A DNA stretch of 20,576 bases from a virus (IMGVR_UViG_642973540_000001), one strand, 5' to 3'. Positions 6,007-17,912 are shown, numbered from the stretch's first letter. Program-made: numbers and translations. The notes: generated by a model not told the origin, from the sequence alone.

Positions 6007-6474
6007 ATGATTCAGGAAACTATCGTAGTAAACATCAATGACCTGTCAAGCAAAGTTGCTTACGTTGCTGATGTTGTCAAGGCTCAGTTCACAGGTCGCA
6101 TTTTCCGTGCTGTAAACGTGAAAAAAGATGGTGCGCTTCGTGAGTACCGTGCTCTGACTGGCGTTTCCAAGCATGTAAAAGGTGCTGGTTCAACAACCGC
6201 ACACAAACCTGAACTGCTGACCATCTACGATATGGGTCTGGCTTCAACTCTCGGTGCAGAGGGTATTCAGGCTGCTGGCGCTCCTTACCGTTCCTTCAAC
6301 ATGGAGACTACTCTGATGTTGGAATTCGTCAAGGGTGACAAGAAGACTACCTACGTCTTCATTGATGAAGCAACCAAATCAGAAATTGCTGATGCGAAAA
6401 TTAAAGCTGCTGTAGACGCAAGCTCAAGCATCACCAATCAATCTGTTGCTATCCTGCTTGGCGCTCTGAAATGA
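6007..6474 (+). CDS. Hypothetical protein, possible WYL-like (Sm/SH3) fold
   Basis: 155 aa, GAGG RBS, own promoter. KKDGALRE...IYD...YRSF pattern. ORF is well supported; the fold call is tentative. Confidence 0.75.
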   Translation: MIQETIVVNINDLSSKVAYVADVVKAQFTGRIFRAVNVKKDGALREYRALTGVSKHVKGAGSTTAHKPELLTIYDMGLASTLGAEGIQAAGAPYRSFNMETTLMLEFVKGDKKTTYVFIDEATKSEIADAKIKAAVDASSSITNQSVAILLGALK

Positions 6475-6668
6475 GTGACCTCTTAGCGCGGTTTGATGAT
6501 TTACTCTCTCATCTGAACTCTGAAGAAAATGGTATGGCTTTAGAGTTTCGTGAAGAGTTGGTGAAAGCATCTCACAAGCTGGAAAAATTAGAAGCACTTG
6601 AGAATTACGGTGTGGATAATTGGGAAGGTTACGGAGAAGCAGTCTCCAGTATTTCCGACGACGAATAA
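6471..6668 (+). CDS. Small acidic phage protein (GVDNWEGY motif)
   Basis: 65 aa, ATGA overlap with the upstream stop. Confidence 0.75.
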   Translation: MSDLLARFDDLLSHLNSEENGMALEFREELVKASHKLEKLEALENYGVDNWEGYGEAVSSISDDE

Positions 6669-8481: not shown

Positions 8482-9264
8482 ATGGTCGTTGACATTTTCA
8501 CTGGTGATTTGTTCACAGAGTTTCGTAAAGGTAACTTTGATGTAATCGCACAAGGTTGTAACTGTCATAACATGATGGGTGCAGGTATCGCAGTGTACTT
8601 TGCAAAGTTCTATCCTGAGTGCTTCAGTGCTGACACACAGGCATACGACTATTACACAGAGAAGGATTCTCACAAGGAAATGTTGGGTAAGATTTCTGTT
8701 GCCCTTACGAAAGACGGCCTTGTAGCTAACCTCTACACCCAATTCAACGGTGGTCGTAACGCTGATTACTTTGCTATGGCAGAGTCTTTCAAGCATCTTG
8801 ACGATTTCCTTTTAGAGAAAATCGGGAAAGGCTATCGTTTAGGTCTACCGTTTATTGGGGCTGGAATCGGAGGGCTTGATATTAATGCGGTCATTGCTCT
8901 GGCTGATTCTGTTCTGGTTAATGGTGATGTGTATTTCATTCGTCATCCAAATGATGTTAACAATTTCATCATCAGTAAACAGTTCAAAGCCAAGACGCCA
9001 GCTAACCCACGTTACACCTATCTCTTATCAGATGGGTTATTCTTCTCGGTGTGTAAGGATGGACGGGTTGATGAGTTACCCTCCAAGTTACCCTTCCAGC
9101 ATCAAAAGCTCAAGAGTTTGAAATGCTTAGGTGATGGTAAGTTAGGTGGCAAAGTGTTCACTAATAAATATGAGCGTGTATTAGAGAGTGCTCTTATTAT
9201 ACCTGCTGAGAATTGGGGTGGACAACAACTTAATATTCAGTTGGGTGATAACATACCTGAGTAA
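8482..9264 (+). CDS. Macrodomain (ADP-ribose processing) protein with C-terminal extension
   Basis: GDLF, IAQGCNC...MGAGIA, VANLYTQ and LPFIGAGIGG are canonical macrodomain motifs. About 100 extra C-terminal residues are unassigned. Confidence 0.85.
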   Translation: MVVDIFTGDLFTEFRKGNFDVIAQGCNCHNMMGAGIAVYFAKFYPECFSADTQAYDYYTEKDSHKEMLGKISVALTKDGLVANLYTQFNGGRNADYFAMAESFKHLDDFLLEKIGKGYRLGLPFIGAGIGGLDINAVIALADSVLVNGDVYFIRHPNDVNNFIISKQFKAKTPANPRYTYLLSDGLFFSVCKDGRVDELPSKLPFQHQKLKSLKCLGDGKLGGKVFTNKYERVLESALIIPAENWGGQQLNIQLGDNIPE

Positions 9265-9274
9265 TATATTTAAC

Positions 9275-9299
9275 AGCCTCCTTAATCGGGGGCTTTTTT
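9275..9299 (+). terminator. Intrinsic terminator ending the left gene block
   Basis: AGCCTCC-TTAATC-GGGGGCT followed by a T-run. Confidence 0.85.
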
Positions 9300-9318
9300 A
9301 TTTTCATTACCGGACAGC

Positions 9319-9460
9319 TTTTTCATTTTCAATTTGTGCATAGGAACTGGCAACGTTTTTTATTTTAAAATCGTGCATAAGGTCTGGCAAGAAAAATCAT
9401 TTTCGATTTGTGCATAGAAGGTCTGGAGGGGTTTTTCATTTTGAATTTGTGCATAGAGAA
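9319..9460. repeat. Four tandem 37-39 bp repeats
   Basis: Core GTGCATA at 9336, 9373, 9410 and 9449. Each is preceded by an ATTTT..AT..-type T-rich tract; the first three are followed by CTGG. Confidence 0.9.
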
Positions 9461-9594
9461 GGGAACCGCTAAATAACGCCCACCCTCCCCTCTACCGTGT
9501 GCCGAAATATCATCCGGCAGCAGTATCATTTTCAGCCTTGTAAGCATTTTGTCTTTACATTCAGAGACTTAGCCAGCCCCTCAACATGTGAAAT

Positions 9595-9624
9595 AGTATA
9601 AGCGATTTGATGAAATAACGTCAA
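9595..9624 (-). promoter_or_regulatory. Leftward sigma70-like promoter
   Basis: Minus strand reads AAAAAATCGC-TTGACG-N18-TATACT. Confidence 0.7.
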
Positions 9625-9658
9625 GCGATTTTTTAAAGAATTTTTATTTTATTTTCTG

Positions 9659-9687
9659 TTGACTTTAAATCTGGCTACCTTTATATT
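9659..9687 (+). promoter_or_regulatory. Rightward sigma70-like promoter opening the small-ORF island
   Basis: TTGACT-N17-TATATT with an AT-rich UP-like tract at 9625-9658. Confidence 0.8.
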
Positions 9688-9723
9688 TTCCGACATCGAA
9701 ACAACCTTACCGGAGTAAAAGAA

Positions 9724-10071
9724 ATGCAAGATTCATTTATTAGAATGTGTAAAGAAGTGGTTAACAACACTTGCCCTATTAATGTTATTTGCAACCCTGC
9801 TAAACATTCATACCATACCGCGATTAATTCAAAGGTATCTAATGAGGACGCTTACAAATACTTTAAAGGGTGTGTTGTTCGTTGCCCTGATGAAAAAGTT
9901 TTAGCAACAGTGTCACACGTTATCATTACACGTGCTGATAAAAACATTATTGTATTCGGTTGTTATGAGGATGCAAGCAACTACTATAAAGAGCTTTTCC
10001 CTGTTGATGAAGAAAGAGAAAAGTTTTTAGAAAAACAGTTTGACAATGGTTATCTGGTTTTAGTAAAGTAA
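9724..10071 (+). CDS. Hypothetical early protein
   Basis: 115 aa, GGAG RBS, leader CGAAACAACCTT. Confidence 0.75.
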   Translation: MQDSFIRMCKEVVNNTCPINVICNPAKHSYHTAINSKVSNEDAYKYFKGCVVRCPDEKVLATVSHVIITRADKNIIVFGCYEDASNYYKELFPVDEEREKFLEKQFDNGYLVLVK

Positions 10072-10109
10072 CCCCATCGAAACGAAACAACCTTAAACAG
10101 GAATCAAAA

Positions 10110-10775
10110 ATGAATACTCCATTTATCGTAAACAGCAAGCAACGTGCAATTCTGGCCGACAACTCTTTCAACCCTGCAATCTCAAAAGAGGGTAAAAACA
10201 TTCGGGAAGGTGTAACGGTTCAGAAGTTTTTAAACCGTATGGCTATTTATTGTGAAGGTCTGAACCCGAAAGCTGAGGTATTTTTAGAAGCCCGTGAGTA
10301 TTCACAATCGCGGGACGTTTACGGCAACCGCACGGCGCATTATTGCGTTACTGTTATGATTGACGATAAGAAAGCGGGTAAATATTATCATCCGTTTGAA
10401 ATCGTGGGAAGCGGTTCACGCCGTCAACAAGTTGGCTATGGTAAAGACAACGGCGACATTACATACAGCCTTGAAAAGTTGGGCTATCCGGTTGAACTCA
10501 TTCAGCGTTATGAAGAGACAAGCGGCGCTGTTCGTTACACTTACAAACTTACAGCTTTAGAAAATATTGAAAAACTGTTTGACGTGGCAACGGGCAATCT
10601 GTACTATAGCGCAACGGTTGAAGGTTACGAGGTTAAAGCGCCTTTGTATTCTTTGATTGAAAAGAAAATTAAAAATCTTGTCTCACGTCGTCGTGATTCA
10701 AGCCGTAAGTTTCCGGTAACTATCAGCCGTCACAAAGGTGATAAAGTTTCAAAAGTTACCCGAATTAATTTCTAA
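10110..10775 (+). CDS. Hypothetical early protein
   Basis: 221 aa, conserved leader AAACAACCTTAAACAGGAATCAAAA. Confidence 0.8.
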   Translation: MNTPFIVNSKQRAILADNSFNPAISKEGKNIREGVTVQKFLNRMAIYCEGLNPKAEVFLEAREYSQSRDVYGNRTAHYCVTVMIDDKKAGKYYHPFEIVGSGSRRQQVGYGKDNGDITYSLEKLGYPVELIQRYEETSGAVRYTYKLTALENIEKLFDVATGNLYYSATVEGYEVKAPLYSLIEKKIKNLVSRRRDSSRKFPVTISRHKGDKVSKVTRINF

Positions 10776-10776
10776 A

Positions 10777-10864
10777 AAAGTGCTTTACACGGTGTTTATA
10801 CTTCGATAGTATAAGCACCAGATAAAGAGCTTTTACAAACAACCCTTACAAAGGAATCAAAACC
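10777..10864 (+). promoter_or_regulatory. Promoter-stem-loop-RBS cassette A1
   Basis: TTTACA (10784)-N17-TAGTAT inside an imperfect inverted repeat at 10777-10833, then the ACAACCCTT-AGGAATCAAAA leader. Confidence 0.85.
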
Positions 10865-11362
10865 ATGAATGCTACTTACTCAATTGTCAAGCCAACTTTT
10901 GAAATTCGTTTCACTGCTGAACTTTCAGAGTGTTGCCCCGCTTTCTTTAGCGACCAATGGAAACTTACAAACAATCATCAGGGCGGCGTGACAATCAAAA
11001 ATCCTTTAGCTTGTCGCAATAGCTATCCTTATGCAATTCCTTTACAATGCAGCTTGTCAGAGCTTACAGCCTCTTACGCTGAACAAGGGCAAGACAACCC
11101 GTCTAAAGCGGCTTACGATAGCTTACAGGCACAGCTAAAGCGTGATTTAGAAGCCAGTGAATATTTTATCACAGGTGCAATTTTTGACCTTGAAGGAAAC
11201 GAGGTGATTAATTCTGTTGCAATGGGTTACGCTTTTGATTATTCTTTCTTAGACAAGGAATCTTTAGAAGAGGCATTAAAACGCAACATCGACGATTCAG
11301 ATTGTGAAACGCAAATGATTGAAGCGGTAGAAGAGTTTAAGAAAAGAATCTCAAAAATCTAG
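10865..11362 (+). CDS. Hypothetical early protein (acidic)
   Basis: 165 aa behind cassette A1. Confidence 0.8.
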   Translation: MNATYSIVKPTFEIRFTAELSECCPAFFSDQWKLTNNHQGGVTIKNPLACRNSYPYAIPLQCSLSELTASYAEQGQDNPSKAAYDSLQAQLKRDLEASEYFITGAIFDLEGNEVINSVAMGYAFDYSFLDKESLEEALKRNIDDSDCETQMIEAVEEFKKRISKI

Positions 11363-11431
11363 TTGCAAAGGGGTTATGGTTATGAGATTATAACCCCGTC
11401 GAAACAAACAACCCTTATAAAGGAATCAATA
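11363..11431 (+). promoter_or_regulatory. Promoter-stem-loop-RBS cassette C1
   Basis: TTGCAA-N17-GATTAT with extended -10 TG, GGGGTTAT...ATAACCCC inverted repeat, conserved leader. Confidence 0.8.
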
Positions 11432-11713
11432 ATGAATGTCACTACTTATCGCAATCTGCCCCCTGTTATGGATATTACTCTTCGAGAAGGGCACGGAAAA
11501 GAAATGCAGTTTACTGATTTACGTGCTGAATATAAGCCTTTGTGGTGGCATGATGCCGGACTTTCTAAGACTAAAAGTGGTTACGGAAAAAATATCCCTA
11601 CGCCGTGGGCTGTCAATTGGGCTGGACGGTTGCGCCGTATTTATTCAACTTGTTACGGTAACGCTGCAAGCCTACACATAAACGTTAAAGGCAAAAAGAT
11701 TGCTGTAATGTAA
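11432..11713 (+). CDS. Small phage protein (SGYG.KIPT...RRIY..CYGN type)
   Basis: True start is ATG 11432 after the AGGA RBS; the TTG at 11363 is the -35 box. 93 aa. Confidence 0.75.
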   Translation: MNVTTYRNLPPVMDITLREGHGKEMQFTDLRAEYKPLWWHDAGLSKTKSGYGKNIPTPWAVNWAGRLRRIYSTCYGNAASLHINVKGKKIAVM

Positions 11714-11800
11714 TAAAGAGCTTTACAGGGTGTTTAGAGATTGATAATCTAAGCACCTGATAAAGAGCTTTATCAATCAACCCTTATAAAGGAAAACATC
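11714..11800 (+). promoter_or_regulatory. Promoter-stem-loop-RBS cassette B1
   Basis: TTTACA (11722)-N17-TAATCT with extended -10 TG, flanked by TAAAGAGCTTTA at 11714 and 11761. Confidence 0.85.
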
Positions 11801-12217
11801 ATGATTCTTTCACCGAAGACGTTTAGCCGTTCACTGGTTGCATCAAATGATTCTAAAGCGGCTGAACGTTTCAGCGCACAAGAGCTGGTAAAGGTTGCCC
11901 GTCAATTCCTTGCAACGTTCAAAGATAATCGGGAACGTTTCGCGGCTAACGTTTTGAACTTGACAAAATCCGTCGAAAATGTAGAATTCACACAAGGCGT
12001 TATCGCTGAAATTGATGATATTATGAAGCGCGGCACTAACTACGCGATGAATGAATCAAAAGCGTTTGAATTTGCAGTTAAAACCGTGTTAGTATGTGAT
12101 TATGGATTCACTAACATTGTCTCACACGGTATCAGTGATGCACTTTGGAAAGATTCAGAAAATCGTAAATTTATGCTTGACTTGAAATCTGATTTTCTGG
12201 CACAATCTGGTTACTAA
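11801..12217 (+). CDS. Hypothetical early protein
   Basis: 138 aa behind cassette B1. Confidence 0.8.
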   Translation: MILSPKTFSRSLVASNDSKAAERFSAQELVKVARQFLATFKDNRERFAANVLNLTKSVENVEFTQGVIAEIDDIMKRGTNYAMNESKAFEFAVKTVLVCDYGFTNIVSHGISDALWKDSENRKFMLDLKSDFLAQSGY

Positions 12218-12248
12218 TCTTACTAACTCTTAAACAGGAATAAACATC

Positions 12249-12464
12249 ATGAAAATTTTCTTCTCTTCTCGTTCTGCTATGCGTTCTGCTACTTTCGGTA
12301 AAGCAACTGACAACGGCAAAGAAGCTGCAAAACGTTGGTCACGTGACTTTGCAAAGGTTATCCGCGCCAAACGTGTTGAAGTTGTTCAGCAGGTTAACAG
12401 CGTGACAGGTAAAGTAAAACCTGTTAAAGTGACTTTCCGTAAATCTCGCAAAGTGACGGCATAA
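12249..12464 (+). CDS. Small, very basic protein
   Basis: 71 aa, K/R-rich, leader CTTAAACAGGAATAAA. Confidence 0.75.
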   Translation: MKIFFSSRSAMRSATFGKATDNGKEAAKRWSRDFAKVIRAKRVEVVQQVNSVTGKVKPVKVTFRKSRKVTA

Positions 12465-12465
12465 A

Positions 12466-12801
12466 ATGACGCAATCAACAGTAAATTATCTTATGGGGGG
12501 CGGCCTTGCCGCTCTTACTATCGGGGGCTTTTACCTCTTCAACCTTATCAAAGAGGTTAAGCAGGTGGACAAAAATAAAGGGGCTGTAAAATCGTTTTTA
12601 AGCGGCCTTACAGCGGCGCAAACGTCCCTTTTGATGTCGTCTATTACTCACGGTCACAACTTTGCAGGGGACTTTATAGCGGCCTTGAATGATGCGCAAA
12701 AATATCAATATTCGGGCTTGCTTTCCGTAATTGGTTCAGGTACATTAAAGCCATATTACAGCGAGATTGTAGAATCTCATCGGGAAAAAGTAAGAGGTTA
12801 A
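12466..12801 (+). CDS. Protein with N-terminal membrane anchor
   Basis: 111 aa, YLMGGGLAALTIGGFYLFNLI. Confidence 0.7.
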   Translation: MTQSTVNYLMGGGLAALTIGGFYLFNLIKEVKQVDKNKGAVKSFLSGLTAAQTSLLMSSITHGHNFAGDFIAALNDAQKYQYSGLLSVIGSGTLKPYYSEIVESHREKVRG

Positions 12802-12803
12802 AA

Positions 12804-12938
12804 ATGATTGGTCTGGTTATCGTCTTAGGTTTTATCGGTCTGTTTGCGGCTCGCGTTATCGGTGAATGCTTAGGCTTAATCAGACCTTTCGAGGATGTCT
12901 TAGCGGAGCGTGAAACGCTCAAAAAGAAAAGGGCTTGA
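12804..12938 (+). CDS. 44-aa membrane protein (not in ORF track)
   Basis: GAGG RBS. Translated by hand as MIGLVIVLGFIGLFAARVIGECLGLIRPFEDVLAERETLKKKRA. Fills the gap between neighbours exactly. Confidence 0.7.
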   Translation: MIGLVIVLGFIGLFAARVIGECLGLIRPFEDVLAERETLKKKRA

Positions 12939-12940
12939 TA

Positions 12941-13174
12941 ATGGAAGGTTTAGCGGGTATTCTGTTTGTGTTGATGGTTGTCGTGGTGATTCTCTGGTTA
13001 GCGTTACTACCTGCAATCATTGCAAACAAGAAAGAAAGCACTAACAAGGGTTTTATAATTGGCTTAACAATCATCGGCCTGTTTTTCTTCCCTTGCTGGA
13101 TTATCGCGCTGATTTGGGCTATTGTTGATTCATCAGCTAAACCCCAAAAAGTGATTTTAGTCAAAGAAGTTTAA
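12941..13174 (+). CDS. imm: Superinfection immunity protein, T4 Imm-like
   Basis: 77 aa from ATG 12941. LLPAIIA...WIIALIWAI and C-terminal AKPQKVILVKE parallel T4 Imm as recalled (LP..IA, W....IW, QP.QVIII.E). Confidence 0.75.
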   Translation: MEGLAGILFVLMVVVVILWLALLPAIIANKKESTNKGFIIGLTIIGLFFFPCWIIALIWAIVDSSAKPQKVILVKEV

Positions 13175-13261
13175 AAAGTGCTTTACACGGTGTTTAACTT
13201 TCGATAGTATAAGCACCAGATAAAGAGCTTTTACAAACAACCCTTATAAAGGAATCAAATC
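13175..13261 (+). promoter_or_regulatory. Promoter-stem-loop-RBS cassette A2
   Basis: Near-identical to A1. TTTACA (13182)-N17-TAGTAT. Confidence 0.85.
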
Positions 13262-13849
13262 ATGCTATGTGTTCACGGCACTACCTTAGAAAACTTCAAA
13301 ATGATGATTGCCAACGAGGGCAAGCCGTCCGGTGCATGGAACGTGTCAGAATGTGATGCCGCCACCTATTTTTATCCGCTGGATAAAATCGCTAAAGCTG
13401 AATGTTTAGAGGCTGATGATTTTGATTCAGAATCAGAATATCAAGACGCTATTTTACAGGCCGCTAAACGTCACGCAAGGGGCAATGCTATGACAACAGC
13501 CGCAATTGCTGAACGTGACACAAAACTAATTGTTTTCCTTGCCGATGTCCCTGAGCACCTTTTAGAGGATGATTATTCGTGTGACAACATGGCCGATATT
13601 GCCTCTTTCATCCATGAAGATGATTTTAAGGTTGAAATGATTCAAAGAATCTGGCAATATAGCTTTTTCGGTATCTTTAGCCCTTATTGTGTTCAACCTG
13701 ATAACCCTTACATGATGTCAATGAGTTATCATCTTGAACAAATGGCAAGGGCTATTCAGAATTCAAACGCTTATCTTTATGACACTATTGAGAATTCATT
13801 AGATGAGAGTGAAGAGCAAAAAGGTTTAGAATTTTTGATAAACATCTAA
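13262..13849 (+). CDS. Hypothetical early protein, candidate ADP-ribosyltransferase-like fold
   Basis: 195 aa. N-terminal VHGTTLENFKMMIANEG, then TYFY. ORF is solid; fold is tentative. Confidence 0.75.
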   Translation: MLCVHGTTLENFKMMIANEGKPSGAWNVSECDAATYFYPLDKIAKAECLEADDFDSESEYQDAILQAAKRHARGNAMTTAAIAERDTKLIVFLADVPEHLLEDDYSCDNMADIASFIHEDDFKVEMIQRIWQYSFFGIFSPYCVQPDNPYMMSMSYHLEQMARAIQNSNAYLYDTIENSLDESEEQKGLEFLINI

Positions 13850-13927
13850 AAAATCGCTTTACAGGGGGTTATGGTTATGAGATTATAACCCCGTCGAAAC
13901 AAACAACCCTTATAAAGGAATCAAAAC
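13850..13927 (+). promoter_or_regulatory. Promoter-stem-loop-RBS cassette C2
   Basis: AAAATCGC-TTTACA (13858)-N17-GATTAT, GGGGTTAT/ATAACCCC inverted repeat. Confidence 0.85.
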
Positions 13928-14254
13928 ATGCTGCACATTGCCCACATTCAAAACTACCGTTCACGCACTGCATCAGTTAAACGCTATGGCAAGTTTAAAG
14001 CGATGCGTTTTGAATGGTCTTGTTATCGTAAAATCCTGTCTTTTGACCGCTCAAAGTTCGTTTGTCAGTCTGAACCGCTGGAAAATCGTAAACTTGAAGC
14101 CCTAGCCCGTCACGCTGGTTTAGTTCTGGCAAAACACGGTCAAGACGTGGCAAATGATTTTGTTAACCGTTGCTTTACCGCTTTACCTTACACAAATAAT
14201 CTGACAGTTGGCCTTTTTATTGAACGTGTAGAATTTTTCGCAAATACTCACTAA
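13928..14254 (+). CDS. Hypothetical early protein (basic)
   Basis: 108 aa behind cassette C2. Confidence 0.8.
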   Translation: MLHIAHIQNYRSRTASVKRYGKFKAMRFEWSCYRKILSFDRSKFVCQSEPLENRKLEALARHAGLVLAKHGQDVANDFVNRCFTALPYTNNLTVGLFIERVEFFANTH

Positions 14255-14326
14255 AAGCGATTGCAAAGGGGTTATGGTTATGAGATTATAACCCCGTCGA
14301 AACAACCCTTAAAGAGGAATCAAAAC
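14255..14326 (+). promoter_or_regulatory. Promoter-stem-loop-RBS cassette C3
   Basis: TTGCAA (14261)-N17-GATTAT, same inverted repeat, GAGGAATCAAAA RBS. Confidence 0.8.
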
Positions 14327-14560
14327 ATGTTGCATCATCAAAGCGGTATGGTATGTTTAGAAGGTGGAATCGAAATCACTTTACCGAAACTGCAAGAAAT
14401 CTATCTTGATTGGATTAACAACTTTCTAACCGTTGAACGTTTCGCAGAATACTACGCCTTAACCGTTGAAGAGGCTAACGTAATCATTCAAGCGGGGCAT
14501 AAAATACAAGGGCTTTACGCTCAAATGCTCAAAGACTTACAATCGCTTGTTTTGAACTAA
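14327..14560 (+). CDS. Small phage protein (YLDW.NNFLTVERFAEYY type, HTH-like)
   Basis: True start ATG 14327; the TTG at 14261 is the -35 box. 77 aa. Confidence 0.75.
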   Translation: MLHHQSGMVCLEGGIEITLPKLQEIYLDWINNFLTVERFAEYYALTVEEANVIIQAGHKIQGLYAQMLKDLQSLVLN

Positions 14561-14642
14561 AAAGAGCTTTACAGGGTGTTTAGAGATTGATAATCTAAGC
14601 ACCTGATAAAGAGCTTTACAGTAACCCCCGTTAAGGTGCAAA
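14561..14642 (+). promoter_or_regulatory. Promoter-stem-loop-RBS cassette B2
   Basis: Core identical to B1. TTTACA (14568)-N17-TAATCT. Leader is divergent (AAGGTG RBS). Confidence 0.85.
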
Positions 14643-14921
14643 ATGAAACTCAGTGATGCAGAATCAAAGACAGTTAACCGCTTAATGCGTGACATCGGTT
14701 TTACTATTATGACCGCCTCAAAACATGCTGTTATGGAGTGGTACAACGGCGTAATAGACGGTAAAGAAAAGATGGTAAACCTTTGGCGCTTCAATGGTGA
14801 ATTACAGTTCGAACTTTACGACAACACACTAAAAAGCCCTGTAAAGTCTACAAAGGATTTAGAACAATCTTACACGATTTGGGCAAACGGTCACTTTATC
14901 ATCAACCCCAAAAAGGTATAA
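14643..14921 (+). CDS. Hypothetical early protein
   Basis: 92 aa behind cassette B2. Confidence 0.75.
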   Translation: MKLSDAESKTVNRLMRDIGFTIMTASKHAVMEWYNGVIDGKEKMVNLWRFNGELQFELYDNTLKSPVKSTKDLEQSYTIWANGHFIINPKKV

Positions 14922-14925
14922 AATC

Positions 14926-15171
14926 ATGGTACTCTTTCCAACTATTCTTTTAATCGCTTCAAGCTGTTCTAACCTGAATTCGTGCCAATTCTCGCAGCTT
15001 GATAGCTGGCAAGATGTCCCGGCTAGTGTGAGTGTTCAGGATTGCATAGAACGCCGCAAAGACTTTCCAGATGAGGAAACAGGCTGTTTTGTGTTAGCGG
15101 GTGAAGATTCTAAAACTCTCTCACTGGAAAACGTCGAAACAGGGGAATGGGTAGAAATCGACAAAGATTAA
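14926..15171 (+). CDS. Small, possibly exported Cys-containing protein
   Basis: 81 aa, hydrophobic N-terminus ending ILLIASSC, four Cys, acidic tail. Confidence 0.65.
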   Translation: MVLFPTILLIASSCSNLNSCQFSQLDSWQDVPASVSVQDCIERRKDFPDEETGCFVLAGEDSKTLSLENVETGEWVEIDKD

Positions 15172-15186
15172 ATTATTTTTCATCAG

Positions 15187-15274
15187 GGGGCTTTACAGCC
15201 CCTTTTTCGTTTTGCTATACTCTTTTCATCGGTTCAGCACTGAACCACAAACAACCCTTAAACAGGAATAAAAC
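15187..15274 (+). promoter_or_regulatory. Fused terminator/promoter cassette E
   Basis: GGGGCT-TTAC-AGCCCC-TTTTT terminator whose loop region holds TTTACA (15192)-N18-TATACT with extended -10 TG. Then hairpin GGTTCAG-CA-CTGAACC and the conserved leader. Confidence 0.8.
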
Positions 15275-15847
15275 ATGAAAAAGTCAATCGCAATCAACCT
15301 TATCCGTTCAGCTTCAGTAATGACCCGCATCAACAAAGAAAGCTGGACTTTTCAGACTTCCTTTAGCGGTGAGTTCGCAGTAATCAACAAGGCTTACAAC
15401 GGCGTTTATTTCGTCCACACTAAAGGCAACAAGGCAACAACTCACAAAACCTTTATGGCGGCTGTTGCTTCAATCTTAGACCTTTACTTGTCAATCATTC
15501 ATGATTCTATGCGCCGTAAGATTCAGGAGCTTAAAAGCCGTTACAACTCCTTAGAAACTATGCGCTACACTCACAAAGAAAACCTGAAACGTTTTGTTAT
15601 CGCTGATGAAGTTTTAGACATCCTGCAAGGCGTAAACGGTGAAGTAGTGACCGACATCTTAACGGGTAACTTTGCAACCTATCGCACTGAATTAGCCGCT
15701 AAAGCTGCAATGAAACACCGCTACATTTCAACGGCCTACACTCTGGAAAGCGTAATAGACCGGATGTCTAAAACCACGTTTAAGACTCTGACACTGTTAC
15801 AAGCCAACTTGCCAGAATCTTTCAAAGTAACCACTTTCGACGCTTGA
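15275..15847 (+). CDS. Hypothetical early protein
   Basis: 190 aa; its TGA stop lies inside the next TTGACA. Confidence 0.8.
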   Translation: MKKSIAINLIRSASVMTRINKESWTFQTSFSGEFAVINKAYNGVYFVHTKGNKATTHKTFMAAVASILDLYLSIIHDSMRRKIQELKSRYNSLETMRYTHKENLKRFVIADEVLDILQGVNGEVVTDILTGNFATYRTELAAKAAMKHRYISTAYTLESVIDRMSKTTFKTLTLLQANLPESFKVTTFDA

Positions 15848-15911
15848 CAGTGAACAGTAAGAGGGGTTAAAATCCCCTCATCAACAAAACCTTATAAAGG
15901 AATCAAAAAAC
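15844..15911 (+). promoter_or_regulatory. Promoter-stem-loop-RBS cassette D1
   Basis: TTGACA-N18-TAAAAT, with the -10 enclosed by GAGGGG...CCCCTC. Confidence 0.85.
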
Positions 15912-16151
15912 GTGAATATCTTAAAAACTAACGATTTATGCCGCTTGATGCACAGTGATTTAGGTAAACCGTTCGTTTACTTTATTGAAGAGGGTAAAAC
16001 CTACTCTTACACGGTAAACCGTTTCGGGGCTTACGCTGCTAAAAACGGCCTTTTGATGAAGTCTAAAAAGTTACTTATCATCGCTGATGAAGATGAAAAG
16101 CCAACGATAGCCGTAAAAGTTTATTTCTACAAAAAGCCTAAAAACGTTTGA
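15912..16151 (+). CDS. Hypothetical early protein
   Basis: 79 aa, GTG start after AGGAATCAAAAAAC; stop lies inside the next TTGACA. Confidence 0.7.
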   Translation: MNILKTNDLCRLMHSDLGKPFVYFIEEGKTYSYTVNRFGAYAAKNGLLMKSKKLLIIADEDEKPTIAVKVYFYKKPKNV

Positions 16152-16219
16152 CAGTGAACAGTGAGAGGGGTTAAAATCCCCTCATCAACAAACAACCCCT
16201 TAAACAGGAATAAACAGAA
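16148..16219 (+). promoter_or_regulatory. Promoter-stem-loop-RBS cassette D2
   Basis: Near-identical to D1. Confidence 0.85.
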
Positions 16220-16471
16220 ATGGCTATCAACGTTACCGAAATTTCCAAAATCTCCATTCAGTCCGAAAGCGTTTATCTGTTGCACCGTGTTGTAACTGAC
16301 ATTTGGGACATCAAAAAAGTAATCCTTGACCAATGGGAAATTCAGGGGTTTAACCTTGAAAAGGGTAACTATCACATTGATTTTGAGTCGAAAGAGGCCG
16401 CTTTAGAACATTACCGCCAGATTGCAAATGGCATCATTGACAATCATCAAGCCGCTTTAAATTCAATCTAA
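16220..16471 (+). CDS. Hypothetical early protein
   Basis: 83 aa, last ORF of the island. Confidence 0.75.
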   Translation: MAINVTEISKISIQSESVYLLHRVVTDIWDIKKVILDQWEIQGFNLEKGNYHIDFESKEAALEHYRQIANGIIDNHQAALNSI

Positions 16472-16488
16472 TCAGACACTTAACAAAA

Positions 16489-16522
16489 AGCCCTTGACAT
16501 TCTACTTGACAGGGGCTAAAGT
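16489..16522 (+). promoter_or_regulatory. Promoter with inverted repeat facing the non-coding block
   Basis: TTGACA (16494)-N17-TAAAGT. AGCCCTTG (16489) pairs with CAGGGGCT (16510). Confidence 0.55.
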
Positions 16523-16616
16523 GTTTTAAGGGTTTTCTCTTAATCCACCCTTTCTATATTCTGTATTCCTCTCTTTAAAGACTCTTTACCATTCCTTTGA
16601 TTATCGTCTAATTGCC

Positions 16617-16914
16617 TTCTAAATGGTATTCTAAACCGTTAACACTGGCATAAAGTCCCGCTATAGTGATTCTTCTAAACAGTCTTCTAAACCGTTCCAC
16701 TCCTTCCCTAACAGTGGGAACCCCACAGGGAACCAGATTAAACAGCCTTCTATAACCCTTCTAAATCGCATTCTAAGCGGTTCTAAGTCTACCCCTTACG
16801 ATTGGGTTAGTAACCCTTCTAAGTCTCTTCTAAGAGCATTCTACGGCTTCAATTAATGATTGCTTTCACACTTGCTTTCTGTTAGTCTTCTAACCCCTTC
16901 TAAGCGTCTTCTAA
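16617..16914. repeat. Phased TTCTAA array
   Basis: 12 exact copies at 16617, 16629, 16673, 16685, 16759, 16771, 16781, 16817, 16828, 16888, 16898 and 16909; 10-12 bp apart within clusters. Confidence 0.9.
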
Positions 16915-17043
16915 GATGAATCACTGATTGCCTTATGTTCTGAATGTAGACTAAAAAGAGGCTTCAATCATTCGATTCAGAGTCTTCAAAGGTTGTCAAG
17001 ATACTGGATAATTTTACGCTATGGTTAGCCACTTTTACATTTC

Positions 17044-17426
17044 GTTAACAACTTTTTAACATCTCTGCAACATTCTATTCAGTCATCTGCATAACATCTT
17101 GACAACATTCTGTTAACATTTCTGTTACAACTCTTTAACGATTCATTAACACAATCCTGTTAAGAGTCTGTTACAACCTTGTTAAAAATTCTCGATACAA
17201 ATTAACATTTCGATAACATGGTGATTCCTCTTAAACGGCCTTTGTCAAGTCTAATAAATTCTCTTCAAACCCTTGACAATCCTGATTAGTTGAGTTGTTA
17301 AGACCCTGTTAAAATCCTGTTAAGATTGTTAAAGAGAATGGGTAAATGTTAACGGATTAGACGAATTGTTAAGAGCTTTAGAGAGTTGTTAAGAGCCTGT
17401 TAAGAGAATGTTGCAGATATGTTAAG
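17044..17426. repeat. Mirror-arranged, phased TTAACA / TGTTAA arrays
   Basis: AAC cores at 17047, 17058, 17069, 17093, 17104, 17115, 17137, 17148. GTTAA cores at 17297, 17308, 17319, 17328, 17348, 17368, 17388, 17399, 17421, plus a GTTGCA variant at 17410. Confidence 0.85.
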
Positions 17427-17648
17427 ATTTTGCAAAGGAACGGTTAACTTCTGAGAAGCGACCACTAAGCAGATATACAATTAATGTCAAAAATTGCATA
17501 AATCTTCAAAGTGACTACTCAATTAACAGTAAAGAACAGTGATTCAGATACCCTGTCAGATATGATGTGAACCCTTGATAGCACTGGTTTAGAGAAGTGG
17601 TACTGTTAATTTTTAAAAAATAGAAAATTATCTGAAAAGTTACTGACT

Positions 17649-17862
17649 GTTAAGGAAGGATGTTAAGACGTAGGTTAAGATTGATTTTAAGGCACTTCTC
17701 AGCCCTTCTCAGAGGACTTCTCAGCGAAGATAAGCAAACATATAGCTTACCAAGAGAAGCCCGTACAGAGGCTTATGAGTGGCTTCTCACGAATCCGTAC
17801 AGAAGACTTGTAGGAGATATGTTAAGAGGTGTGTTAAGGGGTCGGTTAAGAAAGGGGTTAAG
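17649..17862. repeat. GTTAAG array (12-bp period) and CTTCTCAG repeats
   Basis: GTTAAG at 17649, 17662, 17674 and at 17821, 17833, 17845, 17857. CTTCTCAG at 17695, 17705, 17717. Confidence 0.85.
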
Positions 17863-17873
17863 AAATTTTTTAG

Positions 17874-17901
17874 AAAAATAAAAAGCCTCTGAAAAGAGGC
17901 T
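17874..17901 (-). terminator. Intrinsic terminator for the leftward genes
   Basis: Minus strand AGCCTCT-TTTC-AGAGGCT-TTTTATTTTT. Confidence 0.85.
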
Positions 17902-17912
17902 CTAAAGAGGAA

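Follow-up and report, generated by a model that had tools for sequence, protein, structure and literature searches.

Promoter-hairpin-leader cassettes between the small genes of a Kolesnikvirus island as probable recombination linkers

The viral DNA stretch IMGVR_UViG_642973540_000001 (20,576 nucleotides (nt), called the window when the whole stretch is meant) carries at 9659-16522 an island of small open reading frames (ORFs) separated by repeated intergenic cassettes, most of which join a predicted sigma70-type promoter, a hairpin and a standard leader. By megablast of the whole window and of 9400-16800, 34 close records were found, every one from Kolesnikvirus (Ounavirinae), with identities of 96-98% for phiEa104, SunLIRen, ST-3 and SE5 and of about 86% for the M7 group. 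By these matches the window represents the left-hand 20.5 kb of an Erwinia phage in Kolesnikvirus, of the phiEa21-4/phiEa104 type, and the label "Felix O1-like", given in an earlier note made from the sequence alone, is therefore right.

Layout of the island and its repeats

The window opens at rIIA and runs through a phosphatase gene and 400 nt of non-coding sequence into the island, which is followed by about 1.2 kb without ORFs and then by leftward lysis genes. The island (about 7 kb) holds 17 small unrelated ORFs and 13-14 intergenic cassettes (Table 1). The 17 ORFs belong to 17 different PHROGs, 16 of unknown function and one Imm-like (12941-13174); blastp among them gave zero matches to each other, and the curated cut-offs of Pfam were passed by none. 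Paralogous gene duplication was ruled out because the cargo ORFs show no similarity, and tandem repeats or arrays like clustered regularly interspaced short palindromic repeats were ruled out because the spacers are whole genes with their own starts.

Four families were recovered by repeat search, namely A (10775 and 13173, 95% over 87 nt), B (11713 and 14559), C (11370 and 13865, 100% over 60 nt, with a third copy at 14268 carrying a short indel) and D (15840 and 16144, 96% over 49 nt). The shared leader AACAACCYTTAHAVAGGAAT, allowing at most 3 mismatches, was found 11 times in the window, all on the + strand between 10085 and 16211, against 0.04 in shuffled sequences. In the whole-genome check, for which a complete relative of 84,565 bp (52% of words shared with the window) was used, 11 leader copies were likewise found, every one in the same block and zero elsewhere. 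The leader copy at 12222, which heads a four-gene run, lacks a promoter. Matches to the sigma70 consensus, a form of evidence taken from the sequence only, are present in each cassette together with A-runs 5' of the -35.

Several cassettes overlap the end of the preceding gene. TAG at 11360-11362 directly abuts the TTGCAA of C1 at 11363, the TGA codons at 15845 and 16149 lie inside the TTGACA of D1 and D2, and in P2 the TTGACA lies within the end of ORF1 while the -10 TAAAGT abuts the stop codon. The near-identity of copies within a family, the stop-codon overlaps at 11362/3, 15845 and 16149 and the lack of similarity among cargo ORFs, all claimed by the earlier note, were thus borne out on the sequence. 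Its description of the cargo as host-takeover and anti-defence genes was not supported, the sole annotation being one Imm-like protein.

Table 1. Cassettes and cargo ORFs of the island (window coordinates; z, fold against shuffles)
Element	Position	Strand	Description	z
P1	9659-9723	+	first island promoter, TTGACT-17-TATATT, with diverged leader; hairpin not significant	+1.17
P2	10040-10109	+	degenerate C-type cassette, then shared leader; family D3 70%	+0.9
A1	10773-10864	+	TTTACA-17-TAGTAT buried in three-tier hairpin, -26 kcal/mol; then shared leader	-6.3
C1	11360-11431	+	TTGCAA after TAG; 12-bp GGGGTTAT.../...ATAACCCC hairpin over spacer and -10; leader	-3.35
B1	11711-11800	+	A-type design, inner stem different; then leader	-4.85
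Leader-only copy	12218-12248	+	before four-gene run 12249-13174	
A2	13172-13261	+		-4.0
C2	13847-13927	+	TTTACA version	-2.55
C3	14252-14326	+		-3.39
B2	14558-14642	+	non-shared leader; chimeric in Ea_Tu10	-4.77
E	15169-15274	+	canonical terminator hairpin with TTTACA in loop; -10 TATACT; second hairpin; leader	-3.83
D1	15844-15911	+	TTGACA includes ORF190 stop; TAAAAT in loop of 6-bp GC hairpin	
D2	16148-16219	+	provides last two codons and stop of ORF79	
T	16469-16545	+	terminal promoter-in-hairpin, TTGACA-17-TAAAGT, 3' of last ORF	-4.13
17 cargo ORFs	9724-16471	+	starts 9724, 10110, 10865, 11432, 11801, 12249	
Cargo ORF starts, continued		+	12466, 12804, 12941, 13262, 13928, 14327, 14643, 14926, 15275, 15912, 16220	

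Between 10773 and 14642 the cassettes follow the order A-C-B and then A-C-C-B, a pattern not seen in Sf17 or SUSP2 that might go back to an old segmental duplication whose cargo was replaced. An Rfam search of 9200-17900 with E values up to 0.1 gave zero family matches. A scan of IMG/VR with a loose cassette pattern returned 56 single matches, which look like chance hits and were not used. Among the cargo, the start of a basic ORF of 71 amino acids (12249-12464) shows at 12253-12363 a DNA identity of 74% to Aeromonas phage CC2 (231 kb), and its first ~40 residues match three further PHROGs; this start may be a cargo piece common to different phage families. Some deposited starts in relatives look misplaced: M7 gp111 (L002, 6282-6953) has its annotated start upstream in frame and so crosses the A2 cassette, and phiEa104 gp020 and gp026 (L001, 3605-3814 and 6247-6354) are annotated shorter than the ORFs behind the leaders.

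Conserved promoter positions and the fold around them

Compared with shuffles, folding was strong in families A (z of -6.3 and -4.0), B (-4.9 and -4.8), C (-3.4, -2.6 and -3.4) and E (-3.8). The A/B fold is a three-tier hairpin of ~58 nt with -21 to -28 kcal/mol, whose outer stem pairs the A-run 5' of the -35 with the U-run 3' of the conserved GATAAAGAGC box, and therefore the whole promoter is enclosed.

An alignment was made of 23 distinct cassettes of A/B type, taken from the window, M7, Ea_Tu10, phiEa104, FIfi106, Felix O1, Sf17 and SUSP2. CTTTACA, a 17-nt spacer and T25, A26 and T30 (numbering of the first sequence) were invariant, the last three being the T, the A and the final T of the -10 (TAnnnT), exactly 17 nt after TTTACA, while the three inner -10 positions and the loop varied freely. 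Such a pattern of invariant and variable positions is as would be expected of a working sigma70 promoter.

Pairing in the stem was also conserved, with 87.9% of cells paired against 22-53% when the 3' partners were slid. One pair changes from G:C to U:A between genera, and another alternates among U:A, G:C and A:U. In 20 of the 23 cassettes one stem pair is U.G, with C:G in two others and U:A in the last; read on the opposite strand, U.G would become a C.A mismatch, from which we infer that the fold matters on the sense strand. A transcript from the cassette's own promoter would start where the inner stem ends on its 3' side, so that the hairpin is predicted to form only in RNA coming from upstream, and this would fit a terminator, an attenuator or a 3'-end stabiliser for the preceding unit. 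A U-tract follows the GC-rich hairpin in E, and in A/B the run of four U belongs to the outer stem.

Gene gain, loss and replacement at the cassettes

The window was aligned to ten relatives and indels of at least 20 nt were listed, which gave four gene-sized differences over 20.5 kb. SE5, Ep030, Harbringer and Ea_Tu10 lack ORF79 (15912-16151), and all four have a single D in place of D1 and D2; ORF83 together with D2 (16145-16468) is absent from M7 and FIfi106. The D locus was accordingly found in the state D-ORF79 (M7, FIfi106), D-ORF83 (Rouille, Harbringer, Ea_Tu10, SE5, Ep030) or D1-ORF79-D2-ORF83 (window, phiEa104, SunLIRen, SeKF_13, and likewise ST-3 with both ORFs); each of two species shows two of the three states, and the states recur in records of several laboratories.

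In Ep030, which belongs to the window's own species, the single D is a D1/D2 chimera with a 5' part of D1 type and a 3' part and leader of D2 type, and by this alignment the crossover must have fallen within a shared stretch of ~28 nt that contains the hairpin. Between M7 and Rouille (both of species M7), the D promoter and hairpin are identical, the leader and the ORF differ, and the two sequences rejoin at the stop codon before element T, which is the conserved right flank of the ORF79/ORF83 replacement; with the flanks identical, the exchanged unit is therefore a leader plus gene between two conserved cassettes. ORF195 and the C2 promoter (13265-13898) are absent in Ep030, where an A-type promoter, the A2 copy being A1-like, is joined to ORF108 inside the shared leader. 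In Ea_Tu10, B2 is a lineage chimera, part M7-type and part window-type.

In four runs of other samples, all of them assembled contigs, no joints were seen, a negative that covers assembled sequence only. The contigs break at cassettes, as is usual at repeats, and some diverge from the window in or beside cassettes, at 11772 (run X17) and at 12233 and 16077 (run X16). The run X17 contig continues at 11772 into a different leader and ATG. These diverging contigs may be further cargo variants.

The same layout was found behind the phosphatase gene in Felix O1, Sf17 (Mooglevirus) and SUSP2 (Suspvirus), with 500 nt of non-coding sequence, 9-17 small ORFs with cassettes of ~85-90 nt between them, and a long non-coding block. 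The A/B type is the commonest cassette in these three genomes, and D-like and truncated cassettes occur too. A distant blastn with the window island as query, run on 50,697 phage records, found little outside Kolesnikvirus besides the A and B cassettes, and the ORFs were not found. Homologues of 9 of the 17 window ORFs are present in other islands, and two solid ones, those of ORFs 13 and 16, stand at different relative positions, so that gene order differs across the Ounavirinae genera.

The leaders are genus-specific, being CCCTTAnAnAGGAAT in Kolesnikvirus and CCTAAACTGGAGA in the other genera. Over 22 nt, leader likeness was 0.74-0.79 within the window, Sf17 and SUSP2, and 0.46-0.49 between Kolesnikvirus and other genera. 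The paralogous leaders of Sf17 and of SUSP2 have genome-specific variants in common, which points to homogenisation among the leader copies within a genome. A 41-nt remnant in Sf17 (L070, 7150-7190), in which the 5' stem is joined straight to the leader, and a truncated cassette without a -35 in SUSP2 (L071, 24367-24414) were also observed; both look like scars of exchange inside cassettes.

When 258 records were compared with the Felix O1 island, only 9 covered at least 80% of it, and the homology blocks repeatedly ended at cassette coordinates. Two Felix O1 relatives, PMBT20 and GEC_vB_BS, are 98% identical in the shared block. In PMBT20, ORF22 is absent and one cassette consists of the 5' part of cassette 21|22 and the 3' part of cassette 22|23. 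In GEC_vB_BS, a three-ORF insertion lies between two copies of hairpin plus leader. ORF15 is replaced in both, with junctions 37 nt before the ATG and 1 nt after the stop. The alignment of relatives proposed by the earlier note thus places the junctions of ORF gain, loss and replacement in cassettes, with single chimeric cassettes remaining; the fixed ORF content and order that the note had named as evidence to the contrary was not found across the Ounavirinae genera.

Mosaic structure was observed on a larger scale as well. In Harbringer the island is of M7 type and the backbone of window type (96-99% like the window), with switches at 9538-9608 and 16987-16992, and its island appears to have been exchanged whole as one module, with the switches in the flanking non-coding blocks. 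Ea_Tu10 shows several parent switches inside the island, and cassette E holds a switch point of both Ea_Tu10 and SE5. Switch points were taken from a Viterbi segmentation with a null in which informative sites keep their spacing; a first smoothing, with 6 of 7 switch points in cassettes, was set aside for this stricter procedure with its matched null.

At the right end, the terminal element (TTGACA at 16494) points into the ORF-free block of ~1.2 kb (16469-17660). The end of the M7 record and the start of the SPARTY record both lie at about window position 17467, and small indels are concentrated at 17776-17903; the region beyond 16469 may hold the genome terminus or an origin. Outside the island, a 16-nt hairpin, GGACTCTTCGGAGTCC, occurs five times (3921, 6675, 7944, 18803 and 19325) and reads as terminator-like on either strand, which gives the genome a second kind of recurring punctuation.

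Comparison with known systems and weighing of explanations

The closest known counterpart is the promoter-early-stem-loop (PeSL) of T4-like phages. PeSLs consist of a sigma70-like promoter, an A/T-rich upstream tract and a stem-loop, which lies between the boxes, over either of them or beside them and often has the form GGGG...CCCC; they concentrate among ORFans, one chimeric PeSL remains where RB49 and phi1 differ by an indel, and promoter activity, terminator activity and mini-circles were shown (Arbiol et al. 2010; PMC2839356). PeSLs were later extended to other T4-likes (Comeau et al. 2014; PMC4122927). The PeSLs of RB49/phi1, PST and nt-1 and the Ounavirinae cassettes are alike in promoter, A/T tract, stem-loop and intergenic position among small ORFans, and in both, the motif delimits the indels and replacements that distinguish close relatives, with one chimeric motif left behind.

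The two sets differ in lineage: because the window's relatives are Ounavirinae (Kolesnikvirus), the cassettes described here are PeSL-like and not part of the T4 lineage's set. The arrangement differs too, with a single array on one strand adjoining a large non-coding block here and several hyperplastic regions in the case of PeSLs. Unlike in PeSLs, the whole promoter of A/B cassettes lies within a three-tier hairpin with A-rich and U-rich flanks, and the repeat also takes in a genus-specific standard leader, within which junctions fall as well.

In the Felix O1 genome paper, 57-bp repeats between ORFs 15/16 and 19/20 and 39-bp repeats between 18/19 and 20/21 are listed only, with no promoter-hairpin-leader design or role in gene turnover, and temporal control is called unknown (Whichard et al. 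2010; PMC3185647). The 57-bp repeats are the counterparts of A/B-type cassettes and the 39-bp repeats those of the D type. In the literature covered, to which the phiEa21-4 genome paper does not belong, PeSL terms were not found together with Felix O1, Ounavirinae or Felixounavirus.

Small early genes are also clustered near a genome end in the host-takeover module of the Bacillus phage SPO1 and in the early regions of T5 and T7, where each or nearly each gene has a strong host-type promoter and a strong ribosome site. We know of no description of near-identical repeated cassettes serving there as recombination linkers. Integron arrays are similar in that unrelated small genes stand in one orientation with a repeated element between them. 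Unlike in integrons, no integrase or other recombinase is listed in the relatives' annotations of the window region or found as a domain in the island ORFs, the repeats are promoters and leaders and not attC-type sites, and each unit has its own promoter; the junctions fit homologous recombination, whereas the integron type is site-specific.

Taken together, the island is probably a PeSL-like system in a second phage lineage, that is, an early ORFan island wired by cassettes that also act as recombination linkers. Each gene or short run would be expressed as an insulated unit of its own, served by a repeated cassette of ~70-100 nt comprising an A-rich tract, a host sigma70 promoter, a sense-strand hairpin over or around the promoter and a standard leader with a ribosome site, and the hairpin, which would fold only when transcription comes in from upstream, would attenuate or stabilise such transcripts. 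Since the unrelated genes have no long sequences in common other than the cassettes, general homologous recombination would use these as linkers. Recombination between neighbouring copies would delete a gene and leave one chimeric cassette, recombination between genomes would swap or add a leader-plus-gene unit, and copies within one genome would homogenise each other. The resulting plasticity may be of selective value. The PeSL analogy drawn by the earlier note therefore stands for every sequence-level feature and for the cassette-bounded junctions, but not for cargo function, amplification or turnover rate.

The earlier note had given each of its ten cassettes a promoter, an inverted repeat and a shared leader, but B2 (14558-14642) has a leader of a different, non-shared type. 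A number of observations weigh against the PeSL-like interpretation. P1 (9659) and P2 (10040) showed no significant hairpin against shuffles (z of +1.2 and +0.9), and the D hairpins were weak (z of -2.0 and -1.6). Terminator activity of C and D is uncertain because they have no U-tract. Two of the clearest junctions come from Ep030, whose record is marked UNVERIFIED, and for this reason its two deletions and converted A2 could be repeat-driven misassembly. A 65-codon ORF outside the island (6471-6666), ATGA-coupled to the upstream gene, is present in Harbringer, Ea_Tu10 and FIfi106 and absent from Ep030, SunLIRen, ST-3 and SeKF_13, and its junction has a few bases of similarity and no cassette at the ends. 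Four indels are too few to claim greater plasticity for the island than for the sequence on either side. In both species, at 86% nucleotide identity, 14 of the 17 ORFs are constant in content and order, so that the term "plug-in platform" used by the earlier note overstates the turnover observed within the genus. Of the six distinct island switch points, four overlap cassettes, with a null of 0.29 each and a binomial p of ~0.06, so that enrichment in cassettes is suggestive only. Finally, the reverse transcription polymerase chain reaction table for Felix O1 assigns ORFs 16, 20, 21 and 22 to the 5-min class and ORFs 17, 19 and 23 to the 25-min class (PMC3185647).

Some of these points would favour a plainer explanation, in which the cassettes are no more than early promoters, terminators and ribosome sites of the ordinary kind, their likeness due only to selection for strong expression, and recombination is rare, incidental and does not shape gene content. 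Near-fixed gene content within the genus and the non-significant switch-point enrichment agree with it, junctions outside genes are in part to be expected, as variants that disrupt a gene do not survive to be seen, and the conserved TTTACA-17-TAnnnT shows that expression signals are under selection. It is nevertheless judged unlikely, since in two genera chimeric single cassettes are found exactly where two copies flanked the lost gene, a replacement within one species has identical cassettes on either side, duplicated parts of a cassette enclose an insertion, paralogous leaders have genome-specific variants in common, and the Felix O1 island is heavily mosaic with blocks ending at cassettes. 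The inverted repeats could instead be operators, at which a dimeric phage or host regulator would bind double-stranded DNA and shut the early promoters, the RNA fold being irrelevant. They do overlap the -35, the spacer or the -10, where repressors act; yet the stems differ among families A-E and among genera with pairing kept by two-sided changes, the dominant U.G pair fits a sense-strand fold and would be mismatched on the other strand, and no DNA-binding domain was found in the island ORFs, which makes operators extremely unlikely.

More active mobility has also to be weighed, in which a dedicated function would recognise the G-run/C-run hairpins and excise and insert circles of cassette plus gene, amounting to true gene capture. 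The design matches that of PeSLs, for which mini-circles are reported (PMC2839356), and to reach the tandem D1-ORF79-D2-ORF83 state an insertion-like event is required, the left junction of which lies outside any long repeat. No recombinase, however, is listed in the relatives' annotations of the 20-kb window region and no such domain occurs in the island ORFs, and all clean junctions lie within 27-85 nt of homology, for which general recombination suffices, so that this explanation is considered very unlikely. Of the PeSL-like reading itself a bolder form may be drawn, in which the promoters buried in hairpins do more than offer homology passively and the cassettes are a dedicated gene-capture and shuffling system of Ounavirinae, with units excised as circles and re-inserted at other cassettes, homogenisation within a genome keeping the linkers compatible and the sense-strand hairpin coupling upstream termination to the firing of the next promoter; this too we regard as improbable.

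Modular shuffling by PeSLs is so far known only from T4-like phages. That an unrelated subfamily of myoviruses has this design too, with evidence at the level of junctions, suggests a solution of wider use, by which virulent phages may carry and exchange small early genes of unknown function as units that are insulated and express themselves. Felix O1-like phages are in wide use, both to type Salmonella and in the biocontrol of Salmonella, E. coli and fire blight, and in these phages the cassettes mark likely sites of gene-content variation and would offer ready-made sites and expression signals for engineering.

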